Under the pieces are notes generated by a model, which was not told the DNA's origin, made no database searches, and was given only the letters and a program-made list of their open reading frames with translations. A DNA stretch of 11,200 nt, taken from the IMG/VR virus record IMGVR_UViG_2541047728_000018. The stretch is one strand, 5' to 3'. Both the position numbers and the translations under genes were made by a program. This document shows positions 2,637 through 9,747 of this stretch, one piece after another (the first letter of the stretch is position 1; each line of letters begins with the position of its first letter). The DNA comes from a virus. Its lineage: Duplodnaviria > Heunggongvirae > Uroviricota > Caudoviricetes.

Positions 2637-2834
2637 ATGGTTGCCGTAAATCATATACCACACCTTGTACACACACAAACGGCCTTTGTGTGGCGTTTTC
2701 TGGCACTGAGTGCCGGAGAATCTCAAATCATCCACGTAACCGCCTGGACGGAACGCGAAGCGCGTAGCCGTTGCCCGTCCGGTTGTGTTGCTGTATTTGC
2801 TGCCCGTATTCGCCAGGGGTCACATCATGCGTAA
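2637..2834 (+). CDS. Small protein (65 aa) with FVWRF...TEREAR...ARIRQG-SHA domain; possibly Icd-like (tentative)
   Basis: ATG at 2637 with AGGAG SD 5 nt upstream. The C-terminus is paralogous to the C-terminus of the next ORF. Family assignment is from memory of typical P4-like island annotations, not verified. Confidence 0.5.
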   Translation: MVAVNHIPHLVHTQTAFVWRFLALSAGESQIIHVTAWTEREARSRCPSGCVAVFAARIRQGSHHA

Positions 2835-3291
2835 AAACCGCTTGCAAAAAATTATCACGGGGCTGTATGCTTCCCCCGTCGCCCACATGGCGACCGGGTT
2901 TAGCAGCCTGAATACATCTGGCGGACAGCCGCCCACATCCGATAAGCGGTTTTTTTGTGTCCGTAAACCTACCCATACCCGCATTATGGCGGGGCGTAAC
3001 GGGGGAGCCTTTGTGCTCGCTGGTTTCCAGATGACCAGTCTGCTAACCCTGTTACGTCTCGCCACCATGTTTAGCAGCGTAGTAGCGAGACTCCTTAAAA
3101 TTCATCTGGGAGCCTTTCACATGGCTGTATTCGCACGCCCTTATTTTGTCTGGCGCTTTATGCAGTGCCTGACAGACAGTATTGCAATATTCACCGTTAC
3201 CGCTGCCACTGAGCGCGAAGCACGTGCACAGCTGCCGCACGCACATCTTATTTTTGTCGCCCGTATTCGCCAGGGGGGGAGTCATGCATAA
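2827..3291 (+). CDS. Protein (154 aa) whose C-terminal ~56 aa are paralogous to the preceding small ORF; alternative internal start at 3121
   Basis: Start overlaps the upstream stop in ATGCGTAA (2827-2834). C-terminus FVWRFMQCLTDSIAIFTVTAATEREARAQLPHAHLIFVARIRQGGSHA. ATG at 3121 has a GGGAG SD and would give a 56-aa paralog instead. Confidence 0.35.
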   Translation: MRKNRLQKIITGLYASPVAHMATGFSSLNTSGGQPPTSDKRFFCVRKPTHTRIMAGRNGGAFVLAGFQMTSLLTLLRLATMFSSVVARLLKIHLGAFHMAVFARPYFVWRFMQCLTDSIAIFTVTAATEREARAQLPHAHLIFVARIRQGGSHA

Positions 3292-3511
3292 AATACCCTT
3301 TGATGTTCTTGTTCATTCTGAAAACGCATTAATCCGCGCAAAGGAAATGGACGCATTACTACTTAAGTTAATTGATGTGCCGGAAAGTGGCGATGAATCT
3401 GATTCAATGATGTTTTCTGCCGTGCGTACGCTATTAACGCCTGTTATTAATGAATTAAATACAGTGATGGCAATTCACGAGAATAATAAAGCGCAGCACA
3501 CCGGAGAATAA
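3284..3511 (+). CDS. Hypothetical protein (75 aa)
   Basis: ATG 3284 overlaps the upstream stop in ATGCATAA (same coupling geometry as at 2827); SD GGGGGAG upstream. Acidic, helical-looking sequence. Confidence 0.5.
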   Translation: MHKIPFDVLVHSENALIRAKEMDALLLKLIDVPESGDESDSMMFSAVRTLLTPVINELNTVMAIHENNKAQHTGE

Positions 3512-3516
3512 AAAAC

Positions 3517-3816
3517 ATGAAAAATAAAAATTCTGGCGTTACTGCCAGCGGCCCCGCTCGTCCTGAATTTATGAACGGCGATATTTACCGCGATAAATAT
3601 GGCGGCATGGTAACGATTAAAGGCGTGGCAGAACGGCGCATCACCTACCGTCGTGAAGGCTACGAATATGATTGCGTGATGCCTGTTTATCAGTTTGATC
3701 GTGATTTTTCTCTGGTGCAGGCAGCGCCCCGTAGTGTGCCCACCAGCAGGGAGAAAGCACGCGCCAATATTCAGGAAATAAAAAAGATGCTTAACGTATT
3801 CAGGGGTAAAAAATGA
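3517..3816 (+). CDS. Hypothetical protein (99 aa), translationally coupled to the primase
   Basis: SD GGAGAA upstream; its stop overlaps the primase start in ATGA (3813-3816). Confidence 0.55.
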   Translation: MKNKNSGVTASGPARPEFMNGDIYRDKYGGMVTIKGVAERRITYRREGYEYDCVMPVYQFDRDFSLVQAAPRSVPTSREKARANIQEIKKMLNVFRGKK

Positions 3817-5561
3817 AACTGGCACCGAACGTAAAAAAACAGCCACGCGGAATAAAACACAAAGACACAGAGGTAATTATTTTCGCGGGTAGTGATGCCT
3901 GGTCGCACGCGAAACAATGGCAGGAGCAGGATGGCCCCGCATCCGGCGATAATGTGCCGCCTGTGTGGCTTGGGCCAAATCAGCTTGCCGAACTTGATGC
4001 ACTGAAAATTGTTCCGGATGGAAAAAAACGCGTAAGGCTGTACCAGGCCGGAGAACTGGATTTGGTGGAGACCAAAAAGATTGGTCAGAAGCTGGCGGCG
4101 GCAGATATTCAGGACGCAAATTTTTACCCCGAAGGAATGCACGTCCAGAAGTGTGAAAACTGGCGGCGCTATCTGAATGCTGAGCGTGAAAATATTGCCG
4201 CAGGGCTTACCATGCCGGAGCAGAAAAATACGCAACTGGCACAAATGGCAGACAGTGAGCGCGCGCAGCTGCTTGCCGAGCGCTTTGATGGCGTTTGTGT
4301 GCATCCTGAAAGTGAAATCGTTCACGTATGGCGCGGCGGGGTATGGTGTCCGGTCAGCACAATGGAGCTGAGCCGCGAAATGGTGGCGATCTATTCAGAG
4401 CACAGGGCCACTTTCAGCAAGCGCGTAATCAATAACGCCGTGGAAGCGTTAAAAGTTATTGCCGAACCAATGGGCGAGCCGTCCGGCTATTTGCTGCCGT
4501 TCGCCAATGGTGCGCTTGACCTGAAAACGGGGGAATTTTCCCCGCACACGCCGGAGAACTGGATCACCACGCACAACGGCATTGAGTACACGCCACCAGC
4601 ACCCGGGGAGAACATCCGCGATAACGCGCCAAACTTTCATAAATGGCTTGAGCACGCAGCCGGAAAAGACCCGAGCAAGATGATGCGTATATGTGCCGCG
4701 CTGTACATGATTATGGCGAACCGGTACGACTGGCAGATGTTTATTGAGGCCACCGGAGACGGCGGGAGCGGTAAAAGTACATTCACACACATAGCCAGCC
4801 TTCTGGCAGGGAAACAGAACACGGTAAGCGCTGAAATGACATCGCTTGATGATGCTGGTGGACGTGCGCAGGTTGTCGGGAGTCGTCTTATCGTCCTGGC
4901 TGACCAGCCGAAATATACAGGCGAAGGAACGGGCATCAAGAAAATCACAGGCGGCGACCCCGTGGAAGTTAACCCGAAATATGAAAAGCGTTTCACGGCG
5001 GTAATCAGGGCGGTGGTGCTGGCGACCAACAACAACCCGATGATATTCACCGAACGGGCCGGAGGTGTGGCACGTCGTCGCGTGATTTTCCGTTTCGACA
5101 ATATCGTCAGTGAGGCCGAAAAAGACAGGGAGCTACCGGAAAAGATCGCGGCTGAAATCCCTGTCATTATCCGCCGATTGCTGGCGAACTTTACCGACCC
5201 TGAGAAGGCACGGGCTTTACTACTGGAACAGCGTGACGGTGATGAAGCTCTGGCAATAAAGCAACAGACGGATCCGGTTATTGAGTTTTGCCAGTTCCTG
5301 AATTTTCTGGAGGAAGCACGCGGCCTGATGATGGGCGGCGGTGGCGATTCAGTGAAGTACACGACCAGAAACAGCCTTTACCGCGTCTATCTGGCGTTTA
5401 TGGCGTACGCAGGCAGGAGCAAACCGCTAAACGTAAATGACTTTGGCAAGGCTATGAAGCCAGCCGCGAAAGTTTACGGACATGAATATATTACGCGGAA
5501 AGTTAAGGGAGTAACGCAGACTAACGCAATAACAACAGACGAGTGCGACGCGTTTTTATAA
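3813..5561 (+). CDS. Phage/plasmid primase-helicase, P4 alpha-like (D5_N / primase C-terminal type)
   Basis: 582-aa ORF with Walker A motif GDGGSGKST; overall layout of P4-family primase/helicase C-terminal region; placed between alpA and an iteron origin as in P4-like and PICI replicons. Confidence 0.85.
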   Translation: MKLAPNVKKQPRGIKHKDTEVIIFAGSDAWSHAKQWQEQDGPASGDNVPPVWLGPNQLAELDALKIVPDGKKRVRLYQAGELDLVETKKIGQKLAAADIQDANFYPEGMHVQKCENWRRYLNAERENIAAGLTMPEQKNTQLAQMADSERAQLLAERFDGVCVHPESEIVHVWRGGVWCPVSTMELSREMVAIYSEHRATFSKRVINNAVEALKVIAEPMGEPSGYLLPFANGALDLKTGEFSPHTPENWITTHNGIEYTPPAPGENIRDNAPNFHKWLEHAAGKDPSKMMRICAALYMIMANRYDWQMFIEATGDGGSGKSTFTHIASLLAGKQNTVSAEMTSLDDAGGRAQVVGSRLIVLADQPKYTGEGTGIKKITGGDPVEVNPKYEKRFTAVIRAVVLATNNNPMIFTERAGGVARRRVIFRFDNIVSEAEKDRELPEKIAAEIPVIIRRLLANFTDPEKARALLLEQRDGDEALAIKQQTDPVIEFCQFLNFLEEARGLMMGGGGDSVKYTTRNSLYRVYLAFMAYAGRSKPLNVNDFGKAMKPAAKVYGHEYITRKVKGVTQTNAITTDECDAFL

Positions 5562-5576
5562 TTTTTTGTAATTGCT

Positions 5577-5800
5577 GTCTACCCTGTCTACCTGAGTAAA
5601 GAAAAATACATTTAATTCAGTGCATTAAGTTAGGTAGATAGCTTTTTTTTACTGTCTACCCACTATCTACCCTCTCTACCTGATTTTACCTGAATCAGAC
5701 AGGGAGGTAGATACGGGGTAGATAGTGGATAAAAGCACTCTACCCCGCTGAAAGCCGCGCCATTACTGGCATGAGGGCCACTAAGGTAGATAAGGTAGAC
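5577..5800. repeat. Iteron-type replication origin (about 11 copies of GGTAGAT(A) / (G)TCTACC in both orientations) with a DnaA-box-like site
   Basis: + orientation copies (xTCTACC) at 5577, 5586, 5654, 5665, 5674, 5738; inverted copies (GGTAGAx) at 5633, 5706, 5717, 5785, 5794. AGTGGATAA (8/9 match to DnaA box TGTGGATAA) at about 5724-5732. AT-rich spacer at 5596-5650. Lies immediately downstream of the primase gene. Confidence 0.6.
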
Positions 5801-5849
5801 AAGGGGAGGCACAACTCAAAACTTTTTAAACGAGGGGGTAAAAATAAAT

Positions 5850-6128
5850 ATGCACACTTCAGGGAAATTTAATAAATCACTCAAAAAACGCAGAGACAGA
5901 ACAGAACCGAAATATCGCGCGTTAGATATGACAGAGCACGCTTTAAAGGTGGCAATCAGAACGATAGACCGCCACGCGGGGGAAGGATACGCGAAAGCAC
6001 ATCCCGAACTGATAAGCGCATTCATGACCACGACGGCGGCAAACTTTGCCACGCTGACAGAACGGGAGATTGCCGAAGCGGAACAGGTAACAACCATCAA
6101 CGTTAAAACCGGAGAGGTGGAATCATGA
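5850..6128 (+). CDS. Hypothetical protein (92 aa)
   Basis: SD GAGGGGG upstream; its stop overlaps the ssb start (ATGA at 6125-6128). Confidence 0.5.
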   Translation: MHTSGKFNKSLKKRRDRTEPKYRALDMTEHALKVAIRTIDRHAGEGYAKAHPELISAFMTTTAANFATLTEREIAEAEQVTTINVKTGEVES

Positions 6129-6547
6129 CAGCACAGATAGCAGCTTACGGGCGGCTGGTGGACGACCCGCAGGTAAAACAGACCAGCAAGGGCACACCGA
6201 TGACGCTGGCGCGTATGGCGGTCCCCCTTCCGTGCAGCCAGGCAGATGACGGAACGGCGACGATGTGGTTATCCGTCCTGGCATTTGGCAGACAGGCCGA
6301 AGCACTGGAAAGGCACCGCAAGGGTGAACTCCTGAGCGTGGCGGGTAACATGCAGATCAGCCAGTGGACTGGGCAGAACGGAGAAACGCGGCAGGGCTGG
6401 CAGGTTATCGCAGACAGTGTAATCAGTGCGCGAACGGCGCGACTGGGCGGCAAAAAAGGTCAACAGGGCCAGGCTACTGACGCGCTGAACAGGGCAAAAC
6501 AACAGGCGGGGAATGATGATCCGTACGGGGATAACATACCGTTTTAA
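6125..6547 (+). CDS. ssb: Single-stranded DNA-binding protein (SSB) homolog
   Basis: 140 aa. OB-fold core alignable from memory to E. coli SSB (IAAYGRLVDDPQV..., WLSVLAFGRQAEALERHRKGELLSVAGNMQISQWT...), glycine/glutamine-rich linker, and C-terminal acidic tip ending DDPYGDNIPF (compare the DDDIPF tail of SSB). Confidence 0.75.
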   Translation: MTAQIAAYGRLVDDPQVKQTSKGTPMTLARMAVPLPCSQADDGTATMWLSVLAFGRQAEALERHRKGELLSVAGNMQISQWTGQNGETRQGWQVIADSVISARTARLGGKKGQQGQATDALNRAKQQAGNDDPYGDNIPF

Positions 6548-6962: not shown

Positions 6963-7169
6963 ATGGCTGAAGAGAAAAAAGGCGGTGTTTCGGTGTACAT
7001 AAGCCCCGAAATCGTGGAGGTGCTCAAGCAGCGCCACAAAAAAAACTATGAGGCTGGCGTGGCGGCTGGACTGGATCCGCTGATGACGCCGGAGCCGTCG
7101 ATAGGTTCACTTGTACGCTCTTATTTACTTGCGGCGCTTGGGATGCATAAAAATTATGGGGGTGAATAA
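6963..7169 (+). CDS. Hypothetical protein (68 aa), first gene of the head module
   Basis: ORF whose stop (TAA 7167-7169) overlaps the capsid gene ATG (7169-7171); purine-rich SD upstream. Confidence 0.45.
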   Translation: MAEEKKGGVSVYISPEIVEVLKQRHKKNYEAGVAAGLDPLMTPEPSIGSLVRSYLLAALGMHKNYGGE

Positions 7170-8224
7170 TGGCAGGCAAAGCAACGGCACTTAACACTAA
7201 CCAGCTTTTCATGTACCTGAATCGCGGGGATATTGCGGATTTTAAATTCAGCCCTCTGTTTACCACGCTGTTTTTCCCGAACGTGGCGACATTCAGCACG
7301 CAAAACATCATGCTGGATACCCTGGACATTGAAGAAGTCACCATGTCGGCGTTTTGTTCGCCTATGGTGGGTAGCCAGGTTCAGCGCGATAAAGGGTACG
7401 AAACCAGCACAATCAAACCTGGCTACATGAAGCCAAAGCACGAAATCGATCCAACGAAAACCATCATGCGCATGGCTGGAGAAGATCCGGCACAGCTTAA
7501 CGACCCTACCTATCGCCGTATGCGCCTGATTACTGGCAACATGCGCCGCCAGATAAACGCCATTAAGGCACGCGTGGAATGGCTGGCGGTGAATGCGGTA
7601 ACGACCGGAAAAAACATCATTGAGGGCGAAGGCATAGAACGCTATGAAATCGACTGGAAAATACCGGAAAACTGCATCATAGAGCAGGCCAAGGGTAAAA
7701 AATGGTCCGAGCAGGATAAAGACATGCACGACCCAATCTATGACATCGAGCTTTATGCTGATCAGGCTGGTTGCCCCGCAAACGTCATGATTATGGGCGC
7801 TGAGGTATGGCGAACGTTACGCAGCTTTAAAAAATTCCGTGAGCTGTACGATCTTTCCCGTGGTTCAGAGTCCGCCGCAGAGCTGGCCTGTAAAAACCTG
7901 GGCGAAGTGGTGAGCTTTAAAGGCTATCTGGGCGATATTGCCCTTATCGTCTATTCCGGCAAATACACTGACAGCGACGGCACAGAAAAATATTTCCTTG
8001 AGCCTGATTTGCTGGTTCTGGGCAGCACCAACAATAAAGGGCTGGTGGCCTATGGTGCGATTATGGATCAGGACGCAGTAAGAACGGGCGCAACGCAAAA
8101 CATGTTTTACCCGAAAAACTGGATTGAGGACGGCGATCCGGCGATTGAGTACGTGCAGACGCACAGCGCACCGCAGCCGGTTCCGGCAGATATTCGCAAA
8201 TTTGTTACCGTCAAAATTGGTTAA
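7169..8224 (+). CDS. Major capsid protein, lambda gpE family
   Basis: 351 aa. Collinear similarity to lambda gpE recalled from memory: KFSPLFTTLFFPN vs KFDPLFLRLFFRE; PGYMKPKHEIDP vs PGYVKPKHEVNP; DPTYRRMRLITGNMR vs DPAYRRRRIIMQNMR; YPKNWIEDGDPAIEYVQTHSAP vs YPKNWVTTGDPAREFTMIQSAP. Good SD GGGGGTGA. Confidence 0.85.
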   Translation: MAGKATALNTNQLFMYLNRGDIADFKFSPLFTTLFFPNVATFSTQNIMLDTLDIEEVTMSAFCSPMVGSQVQRDKGYETSTIKPGYMKPKHEIDPTKTIMRMAGEDPAQLNDPTYRRMRLITGNMRRQINAIKARVEWLAVNAVTTGKNIIEGEGIERYEIDWKIPENCIIEQAKGKKWSEQDKDMHDPIYDIELYADQAGCPANVMIMGAEVWRTLRSFKKFRELYDLSRGSESAAELACKNLGEVVSFKGYLGDIALIVYSGKYTDSDGTEKYFLEPDLLVLGSTNNKGLVAYGAIMDQDAVRTGATQNMFYPKNWIEDGDPAIEYVQTHSAPQPVPADIRKFVTVKIG

Positions 8225-8235
8225 CGGGGGATTCT

Positions 8236-8571
8236 ATGGACACTCCATACATTGAGTTATTTGCAGGCAGTCAGCAGGTCGCCACGACGCTGGTACATTT
8301 TGCCGCTGATGCTGGCGTTATTCAGGAATTTACCCCGCTGATGCTGGCGGACAATGGCGAGTTTAAGCCGTGGGATGGTAAGGAATCTGGCAAGGCTGTT
8401 TATCTGACCTCGTACCCTGTGGACACGTCAAAGCAGAAATCAGCACAGTGTTACAAGACGGGGATATTCAATATTGCCGCCGTTAACTGGCCTGAGAGCG
8501 TCGACACCGATGCGAAAAAATGCGCCGCCTTTGCGGGTTCTGGCGTATCCGTTCAGCCGCTGGCCCGATAA
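8236..8571 (+). CDS. Head decoration protein, lambda gpD-like
   Basis: 111 aa. TPLMLADNGEFKPWDG vs gpD TPLMLDTSSRKLVAWDG; YKTGIFNIAAVNWPESVDTDAKKCAAFAGSGVSVQ vs [43 protein letters not shown]. Confidence 0.75.
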   Translation: MDTPYIELFAGSQQVATTLVHFAADAGVIQEFTPLMLADNGEFKPWDGKESGKAVYLTSYPVDTSKQKSAQCYKTGIFNIAAVNWPESVDTDAKKCAAFAGSGVSVQPLAR

Positions 8572-9204: not shown

Positions 9205-9747
9205 ATGAAATCGCACCTGATGAACAAAAAAAACATGGCGAAAAGCTGCCGTGTAAGTGCGACAGCGTTCGACAAGTGGGGAGTGACTCCCGTTGAACGT
9301 AAAGGCCGTGAGGCGTTTTACGATGTTGCCAGCGTGATAGACAATAGGGTTAACAATGCAATTAGCCAGCTTACAAACGACAAAGGCGATATTGATGATG
9401 ATGAACTCTTACGAGTCAGGATCAGATTACTGACAGCACAGGCGGAGGCGCAGGAACTTAAAAACGAGCGCGATCGCGGTGACGTGATTGATACTGAGTT
9501 TTGCCTGTACGCGCTTTCAAAGCTGGCGAGTCAGATTTCATCAATCATGGACAGCCTCCCGCTTACTATGCAAAGGAGCTTCCCACAGATTACCCCCGCC
9601 ATGCTGGATAGGCTTAAAAGGGAAGTGGTTAAAGCCTGTAATGCCAGTGCCAGAGTTGCCGACAACCTCCCACAGATACTGGCTGATTACTTGAAAGAAA
9701 CAACCGGAAACGTACCGGAAAAGTTGCTACAGAAGAAAGGCGAGTAA
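9205..9747 (+). CDS. Terminase small subunit, lambda Nu1-like (possible packaging-redirection TerS)
   Basis: 180 aa. LLTAQAEAQELKNERDRGDVIDTEFCLYALSKLASQISSIMDSLPLTMQRSFPQI vs lambda Nu1 LTRAQADAQELKNARDSAEVVETAFCTFVLSRIAGEIASILDGLPLSVQRRFPEL; N-terminal wHTH region (NKKNMAKSC...FYDVASVI) is related but diverged. Alternative starts at 9220 or 9235; SD is weak. Confidence 0.8.
   Translation: MKSHLMNKKNMAKSCRVSATAFDKWGVTPVERKGREAFYDVASVIDNRVNNAISQLTNDKGDIDDDELLRVRIRLLTAQAEAQELKNERDRGDVIDTEFCLYALSKLASQISSIMDSLPLTMQRSFPQITPAMLDRLKREVVKACNASARVADNLPQILADYLKETTGNVPEKLLQKKGE

Follow-up and report, generated by a model that had tools for sequence, protein, structure and literature searches.

A candidate C4-type immunity module between two Icd-like genes of a PICI-type satellite

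The viral record IMGVR_UViG_2541047728_000018 of IMG/VR (Caudoviricetes) carries, at positions 2,637 to 3,816, a chain of small open reading frames (ORFs), two of which are related to each other. We refer to the whole stretch of DNA that was analysed, 11,200 nucleotides in length, as the window. The element in it is small and integrative, with an integrase gene at 1-1242 and an AlpA-like gene at 1739-1945. What are two related short genes doing between alpA and the primase gene of such an element, and what fills the stretch between them? A preliminary description, made from the letters alone, had assigned positions 2835-3120 to the N-terminal portion of a protein and overlooked a C4/CI-type RNA, its a1/b1 and a2/b2 targets and a candidate internal promoter, all lying between the two copies. 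We find that 2835-3120 is primarily occupied by an RNA gene and the sites that this RNA targets. The region as a whole is, in our judgment, very likely an immunity and early-operon control module of a satellite of the phage-inducible chromosomal island (PICI) type, built like the PLE-cI-kil/eta region of P4 and the immI c4-icd-ant operon of P1.

An RNA between two Icd-like genes

The features of the module, in plain coordinates of the window, are as follows.

2637-2834, + strand: icd-1, the upstream Icd/Kil-family paralog, 65 aa (NF033153, 64.7 bits)
2827-3291, + strand: eta-like open frame, 154 aa, starting on the icd-1 stop (ATGCGTAA), crossing the promoter, a1/b1, C4 and a2/b2, and ending as icd-2
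2843-2872, + strand: internal promoter candidate, TTGCAA (2843-2848), 18 nt, TATGCT (2867-2872)
2865-2956, + strand: upstream target region, a seqA/IsrK-like element with a1, b1 and then a weak hairpin and a U7 run (about 2935-2956)
2900-2906, + strand: a1, TTAGCAG, exact complement of a'
2915-2921, + strand: b1, CATCTGG, exact complement of b'
2982-3069, + strand: C4/CI-type antisense immunity RNA (Rfam RF01695, E 5e-13; 72.7 bits, where the cutoff is 45; all 87 model positions covered)
3024-3034, + strand: b', the loop of the second C4 hairpin, core CCAGATG
3040-3046, + strand: a', CTGCTAA
3071-3077, + strand: a2, TTAGCAG, exact complement of a'
3102-3109, + strand: b2, TCATCTGG, overlapping the icd-2 Shine-Dalgarno sequence GGGAG (3108-3112)
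3121-3291, + strand: icd-2, the predicted C4-controlled leader gene, 56 aa (NF033153, 53.7 bits), nested in the frame open from ATG 2827

The full-length match to the C4 model is joined by DNA similarity to well-studied phages, positions 2890-3079 sharing 75-79% identity with the c4 region of P1 and P7. The sites in the window were placed by alignment with the annotated immI operon of P1, in which a1, b1, C4, a2, b2 and icd occur in that order. The gene icd-2 lies directly downstream of the C4 RNA, with b2 on its ribosome-binding site and a Shine-Dalgarno sequence that ends 8 nt upstream of ATG 3121. In P1, the b2 site is annotated with 'repression of icd ant translation', and icd itself as 'apparently required for expression of ant' (PMC8198154). 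The other copy, icd-1, has no C4 upstream, and by eye its leader has no match to the b' loop of this element. In the predicted minimum-free-energy fold of the primary transcript, a1 and b1 pair in cis with a' and b'. The equivalents of the IsrK-like element in P4, in the first module of the E. coli locus L001 and in L006 exceed the Rfam isrK cutoff, with 60.8-61.8 bits.

The window was compared with 17 further loci, namely P1, P4, one locus each from Shigella and E. albertii, and 13 E. coli islands (L numbers are used below where loci must be told apart). Their C4 RNAs were located with Rfam, giving 19 modules; beyond the named exceptions this diversity was sampled from E. coli genomes, and a profile search of genome contigs with a four-member Icd alignment yielded 2 loci. 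The b' loop takes 14 distinct sequences among the 19 modules, each with an exact complement at both b1 and b2. Variants of a' (CTGCTAA, CTGTCAA, GGCTAA, GGTAAC and others) are accompanied by complements at a1 and a2 in all modules except P4, for which the covariation script found no a1 match to a'. The same script recovered all four annotated P1 sites (a1, b1, a2 and b2) exactly. In every compared module b2 adjoins GGA(G), 12-18 nt upstream of the icd start. As judged from these alignments, covariation among all three partners is the classical hallmark of an antisense RNA with its own specificity, and it shows the RNA, not the protein, to be the hypervariable part of the region. The preliminary description had supposed that the duplication diversified a protein directed at the host or a helper; what diversifies is the loop with its targets, and the protein core does not follow.

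The two genes themselves turned out much as had been suggested. The ORFs at 2637-2834 and 3121-3291 are paralogs with 26 of 55 residues identical (47%, E 7e-14), and they share the motifs FVWRF, TEREAR and ARIRQG-SHA that had been pointed out, differing chiefly in the N-terminus and in the 5-8 residues past WRF. The Icd-like identity, which had been offered as a possibility, agrees with the profile searches of the 65-aa and 56-aa products, both of which match NF033153 (NCBIfam phage_ICD_like, 'host cell division inhibitor Icd-like protein'; curated cutoff 25 bits). P1 Icd and P4 Kil reach 52.6 and 76.1 bits on the same model, so that the family, on this profile evidence, joins the small genes found downstream of the immunity RNA in both classical systems. 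The Prokaryotic Genome Annotation Pipeline (PGAP) also names both copies Icd-like in E. coli genomes, the second as a 465-nt long form, and a database search returned 791 clusters, nearly all from E. coli and nearly all bearing an Icd-like name. At the DNA level the picture is mixed: repeats of about 150 bp are indeed present (2680-2834 and 3140-3291; z = 10.4 over shuffles), and they are weak, with 64% identity along their length, rising to 77% in the final ~48 nt. The overlaps of stop and start codons are as described, ATGCGTAA at 2827-2834 and ATGCATAA at 3284-3291, with ATGA at 3813-3816 between the DUF4222 and primase genes, and such overlaps recur among relatives.

Both icd-1 and icd-2 are real proteins under purifying selection, in keeping with the earlier view of them as genes rather than noise. 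The ratio of nonsynonymous to synonymous substitution rates (dN/dS) is 0.22-0.64 for icd-1 (8 orthologs, with dS up to 1.4) and 0.07-0.6 for icd-2 (10 orthologs), mostly 0.2-0.45 for both copies, so the repeats are conserved as protein and not only as DNA. The start, frame and Shine-Dalgarno sequence of icd-1 are intact in 8 of 8 orthologs, and the core motifs do not vary across 50 members of the family. The AlphaFold2 model of Icd-1 has a beta-beta-alpha-beta arrangement with a predicted local distance difference test (pLDDT) score of 70.

Two promoters can be proposed for the region. The internal candidate lies downstream of both the icd-1 stop and ATG 2827; it aligns with TTGACC-17-TATAGT of P1 (P1c4) and with TTGCCT...TATAGT of P4, and by homology it is the counterpart of P1c4/P51b in P1 and of PLE in P4. 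The second candidate lies upstream of icd-1, among the following features.

2328-2507, - strand: divergent small gene for an Arc/ribbon-helix-helix-like (YlcI/YnfO-like) protein, phrog_228 Arc-like repressor, E 2e-6
2501-2559, + strand: upstream regulated promoter candidate, TTGACA (2501-2506), 16 nt, TGTAAT (2523-2528), read by eye
2578-2610, + strand: hairpin in the icd-1 5' leader, AAGCCCCG, 17 nt, CGGGGCTT, an 8-bp stem followed by CTAACCA

Downstream of the upstream promoter candidate is a palindrome with 12-nt arms at 2533-2544 (TTATGTGTAATG) and 2548-2559 (CATTACACACAA). Together with the divergent Arc-like gene it gives the appearance of an operator and its repressor acting on transcription of icd-1, which makes the product of 2328-2507 a candidate repressor of this promoter. 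The match of that gene to NF041551 (YlcI_YnfO_N) is weak, at 20 bits against a cutoff of 30; its orthologs in relatives bear the annotation YlcI/YnfO. The hairpin in the icd-1 leader is present with at most 1 mismatch in 6 loci whose upstream sequences fall into three unrelated types; read from the minus strand, it is reminiscent of an intrinsic terminator. We considered it as a target of the element's own C4 and rejected the idea, as its loop, CACTGTAGGAG, has no match to the b' of the window (CCAGATG). That loop equals b2 joined to the Shine-Dalgarno sequence in another specificity type, CTACAG, which L010 and the second module of L001 represent.

A frame across the RNA and the control it may exert

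The question of how such a module might work is best approached through the classical systems. By analogy with P1 and P4, the internal promoter (about 2843-2872) would be constitutive, and in the quiescent island its transcript would be processed to C4. This RNA would then pair with a2/b2, mask the ribosome-binding site of icd-2 and block its translation, and that block would in turn halt transcription and translation of the replication genes. The latter would be silenced along with icd-2 because ORF C, the DUF4222 gene and the primase gene are linked to it by overlapping or nearly abutting stop/start junctions. Silencing in P4 runs through premature termination (PMC4825925). Less certain is the course of induction, in which transcripts from the upstream promoter (about 2501-2528, beside the Arc-like gene) would carry icd-1 free of C4 control. 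Ribosomes that finish icd-1 could restart at ATG 2827 within ATGCGTAA and translate the 154-codon frame across a1/b1, the weak terminator, C4 and a2/b2, and this eta-like translation might override immunity and allow expression of the replication genes, as P4 Eta does. We infer this bypass from the P4 precedent, and by the same analogy the starts at 2827 and 3121 are probably both used, on different transcripts.

The P4 precedent is close in its layout. The kil frame of P4 is open from an ATG overlapping the stop of orf88/vis and passes through PLE, seqA, the CI RNA and seqC; this frame is eta. According to a published account (PMC10111431, citing Forti 1999), the constitutive promoter of P4 lies inside eta, its transcript is terminated via CI/seqA and processed to CI, and Kil is a truncated product; the eta-equivalent ORF is reported there to be translated and to prevent termination. 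In our comparison, stops were counted over the stretch that begins 150 nt before C4 and extends to the start codon of icd; 15 of 18 modules have none in the icd frame, whereas the other two frames have 1-11 stops each. Modules of the type found in the window (type A) keep a distance of exactly 297 nt from ATG to ATG in 8 of 8 cases, despite three different configurations of -1/+1 indels, one of them a compensating pair 108 nt apart. Where icd-1 meets the long ORF, the ATGnnTAA junction persists in spite of differences in the flanking bases (CATCATGCGTAAA, GAGTCATGCTTAAA and CACATGGATAAA), and 104 of 120 family representatives end in His or Tyr plus a residue with a G-initial codon, which implies an embedded ATG. 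Taken together, these patterns support a through-frame that would be translated, though not indispensable.

A number of observations weigh against this scheme or parts of it. Its support comes from sequence, and expression of both the RNA and the proteins is a prediction. The upstream target region scores just below the cutoff of one model that describes it and well below that of another, with 45.5 bits (E 5e-9) for c4-a1b1 (RF03163, at 2865-2914) against a gathering threshold of 46.7, and 36.8 bits for isrK (RF01394, at 2878-2956), well under the gathering threshold of 50. A strict consensus scan flagged neither promoter; homology, or inspection by eye, is their basis. From the conservation of the protein core it seems that Icd proteins do something beyond serving as leaders. 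The Icd-1 structure model is of moderate confidence and has no structural relative; inhibition of division is established solely for P1 Icd, and killing solely for P4 Kil. The open frame is not universal, with 2 in-frame stops in P1, 3 in L006 and 2 upstream in L015, and two long forms, those of L007 and L009, are 'frameshifted' according to PGAP. Given these stops and frameshift calls, some elements at least can do without the through-frame. Close relatives are numerous among the compared modules, so their counts are not independent.

Several of these points could be explained if the RNA switch were real and 2827-3120 were never translated. The open frame would then be a by-product of a conserved, G+C-rich RNA, icd-1 would be an independent small gene with a function of its own, and induction would depend on promoter strength or on titration of C4 by a1/b1 RNA. 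We regard this as possible and, on balance, doubtful. P1 works without such a frame and has an in-frame TAA in b', the frames of L006 and L015 are interrupted, two long forms are deemed frameshifted, and the seqA-like IsrK of Gifsy-1 acts in trans, activating a downstream ORF (PMC4825925); the kinship of the modules compared also favors caution. In the fast-evolving b boxes, however, stops avoid this frame: among 28 stop triplets in the b', b1 and b2 boxes of the 14 specificities, 1 lies in the icd frame (binomial P 1.8e-4, or about 0.007 by hand when b1 and b2 count as one trial, identical sequences inflating N), and it belongs to the frameshifted L006. Each of the three indel configurations restores the frame, an ATG sits on the icd-1 stop even in divergent junctions, and in L006 and L015 the neighboring frame is stop-free, as expected after a recent frameshift of an open frame. 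The reported translation of the P4 equivalent, mentioned above, likewise argues that the frame is used.

The remaining explanations concern the proteins. If icd-1 were a functionless, decaying leftover of recombination between tandem [C4-icd] cassettes, it is easy to see why the icd-1 of the window is a hybrid of two segments of L001, and why relatives have icd copies annotated as truncated or partial and copy number varies. Such decay is improbable for a gene with the dN/dS values given above at dS up to 1.4, an intact frame, start and Shine-Dalgarno sequence in all 8 orthologs, motifs unvarying in 50 family members and a junction with the module that recurs in 64 complete E. coli genomes. 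A chain made purely of protein-coding genes, its duplicated C-terminal domain diversifying against host or helper proteins and no RNA element involved, would account for the paralogs differing mainly in the N-terminus and in the 5-8 residues past WRF, and both P1 Icd and P4 Kil do act on the host cell. We give this explanation hardly any credence, as it is already contradicted by the C4 match, the identity with P1/P7 c4 and the covariation: a full-length C4 match (E 5e-13) with covarying targets fills the stretch between the repeats, the translation of 2827-3120 matches no protein family, Pfam Phage_ASH included, and it is the RNA loops that are hypervariable while the protein core is conserved. 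Control by an antisense RNA, with an eta-like frame across it, remains the reading that we prefer.

Gain and loss of cassettes among related islands

If the repeats are leader genes, why should there be two? Comparison of copy number across related islands, which the preliminary description had thought informative, was indeed so. Icd copies number from one to three and C4 copies from zero to two, with the junctions inside icd. One icd and one C4 are present in L012-L015, L006, P4 and P1. Two complete C4 cassettes of differing specificity stand in tandem in three loci, at the following coordinates of each locus.

L001, 3138-3695: tandem C4 cassettes
L009, 1168-2143: tandem C4 cassettes
L017, 1076-1633: tandem C4 cassettes

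Compared with the window, L001 contains 360 bp more within icd-1, and this insertion is a whole extra cassette; the icd-1 of the window corresponds to the N-terminal piece of icd-0 from L001 fused with the body of icd-1 from the same locus. Other loci look like the reverse process. L005 (2971-3171) has a single copy of the icd-1 type, with an icd-1-type body and an icd-2-type tail, and L016 (1745-1942) has a single hybrid with an icd-1-type N-terminus and an icd-2 body; neither has a C4 nearby. These mosaics suggest natural deletion of cassettes by recombination between the repeats, and the copy-number pattern as a whole is, on the sequences compared, what such recombination would produce. We therefore take the two repeats to be Icd/Kil leader genes that serve, in addition, as homologous handles for the gain, loss and stacking of C4 cassettes. 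The junction between icd-1 and the module is found, at a coverage of at least 80%, in 64 of 5,426 complete E. coli genomes, and the 3' segment of icd-1 alone in 762.

The first cassette of L001 and of L017 is crossed by one continuous open frame, which begins at the start codon of the first icd and continues into the following icd. In PGAP annotation this frame is divided into an 'ash family protein' pseudogene and an Icd-like gene.

A tentative proposal, which we put forward as something short of likely, is that Icd/Kil genes are the homologous handles of a cassette system, in which recombination within icd inserts, deletes or stacks whole [targets-C4-icd] units, the RNA gene being kept protein-coding so that the upstream promoter overrides every immunity in the stack at one go. 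If this is true, satellites could gain one, two or no RNA immunities, with fast-diversifying specificities deciding which co-resident or incoming satellites are silenced.

Setting of the module and comparison with known systems

The genes that follow icd-2 are those of a small replicating satellite with late genes of its own.

3284-3511, + strand: ORF C, 75 aa (phrog_2196, E 4e-10), its start overlapping the icd-2 stop (ATGCATAA), in the position of P4 epsilon
3517-3816, + strand: DUF4222 gene (PF13973, 84.4 bits), with an ATGA overlap with the primase gene
3813-5561, + strand: D5_N / P4-type primase-helicase (TIGR01613, 109.8 bits; PF08706, PF19263, PF03288)
6125-6547: single-stranded DNA-binding protein (SSB)
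7169-8224: lambda E-type major capsid protein
8236-8571: lambda D-type decoration protein
9205-9747: Nu1-like small terminase

Profile searches with ORF C gave no Pfam or NCBIfam match, its sole match being the uncharacterised PHROG 2196. In P4 the same slot belongs to epsilon, which derepresses the helper; in relatives of the window it is taken by one to three differing small ORFs, and it appears to be a variable position. The DUF4222 gene begins 5 nt past ORF C, and the primase gene is the replication gene that closes the controlled operon. Just downstream of the primase gene, at 5569-5806, the iteron (C/T)TGTCTACC(C/T)/GGTAGA(T/C)A occurs in at least 10 copies in both orientations; this array is probably the replication origin of the island. 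Matches to microRNA families of Rfam at 5640-5737 were rejected as spurious, being due to the inverted iterons. The ORFs tested downstream of the primase gave SSB, capsid E, decoration D, Nu1 or no family, and sid, delta and psu were not found among them. As far as gene content can tell, the late genes mark a capsid-encoding satellite of the PICI type, not a P4-like one in the strict sense.

Annotation of such regions deserves comment. The 154-aa long form goes by 'Icd-like' in PGAP, which leaves the RNA here unannotated; related loci have 'ash family protein' pseudogenes. The old P4 coding sequence for a 'cI gene product, transcriptional repressor' (NC_001609 8168-8584; L004 4169-4585) is a translation across the CI RNA that ends in Kil. 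The PHROG families 1743 and 6196, which the Icd proteins of the window match, bear the label 'transcriptional repressor'; this label probably derives from the P4 cI coding sequence and is not a function. The labels 'Icd-like' for the long form, 'ash family' and 'transcriptional repressor' all go back either to translation of the C4/CI RNA gene or to the old cI ORF of P4. The main practical value of the analysis lies in correcting these annotations and in clean, testable predictions. The module shows how a capsid-encoding satellite probably silences its primase operon and how that operon may be switched on, and the sequence of the b' loop could provide an easy mark of immunity specificity among the many islands of E. 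coli.

Among the known systems, P4 shares with the window the order of an internal promoter, an a1b1/seqA element with an isrK-like hairpin, the C4/CI RNA, a target on the ribosome-binding site of an Icd/Kil gene of 56-65 aa, small coupled ORFs and the primase. Kil matches NF033153, the long frame through the RNA gene begins on the preceding stop in both, and the stop of Kil overlaps the start of epsilon by 8 nt, which may be compared with ATGCATAA. The kinship of the proteins is distant: P4 Kil and Icd-2 are 24% identical, Kil was not detected by tblastn from the window protein, and the relationship is visible at the profile level alone. In P4 the coupling partner of eta is the AlpA-like vis/orf88, whereas in the window it is a second Icd/Kil paralog, with alpA 700 nt upstream and the divergent Arc-like gene in between. 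P4 Eta matches Pfam Phage_ASH, unlike 2827-3120 of the window. The window has genes for a lambda-type capsid, a decoration protein and Nu1 instead of sid, delta and psu.

The immI operon of P1 and P7 (c4 - icd - ant1/ant2) resembles the window at the DNA level, the 75-79% identity running from b1 through C4 to a2. The layout of a1, b1, a', b', a2 and b2 is the same, b2 lies at the icd Shine-Dalgarno sequence, icd overlaps the next gene (ATGA), and differences in specificity fall in the loop and the target boxes. P1 differs in having no upstream icd, in a c4-spanning frame closed by two stops, in promoters under a C1 operator, and in a downstream controlled gene that encodes an antirepressor rather than replication proteins. 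The isrK-STnc1160-orf45-anrP region of Gifsy-1 in Salmonella resembles the window in having a seqA-like short RNA that runs to a terminator, then a C4-like RNA that is processed, and a small ORF driving a downstream gene (PMC4825925). There the short RNA is described as a trans activator acting on a read-through transcript (PMC4825925), and the isrK match of the window, as noted, falls below the gathering threshold.

A further comparison is with the PICIs of Gram-negative bacteria (GN-PICIs). In the account cited above (PMC10111431), C4 and isrK matches from Rfam are already reported in several GN-PICIs, and the order of zones is given as integration (int, AlpA), Bro/immunity RNA, replication (primase, SSB) and late (capsid E and others). 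The gene order of the window matches this 'Bro zone' layout of GN-PICIs and helper-embedded PICIs as presented there. The passages of it consulted here do not describe flanking Icd paralogs, tandem C4 cassettes, diversity of loop specificity or avoidance of stops in the through-frame. On sequence grounds, then, the locus belongs to the immunity family of P1 C4 and P4 CI, and both of its ORFs are routinely named Icd-like. It is distinct from P4 in having a second Icd paralog as the upstream partner, in the tandem cassettes of its close relatives and in its lambda-type late genes.

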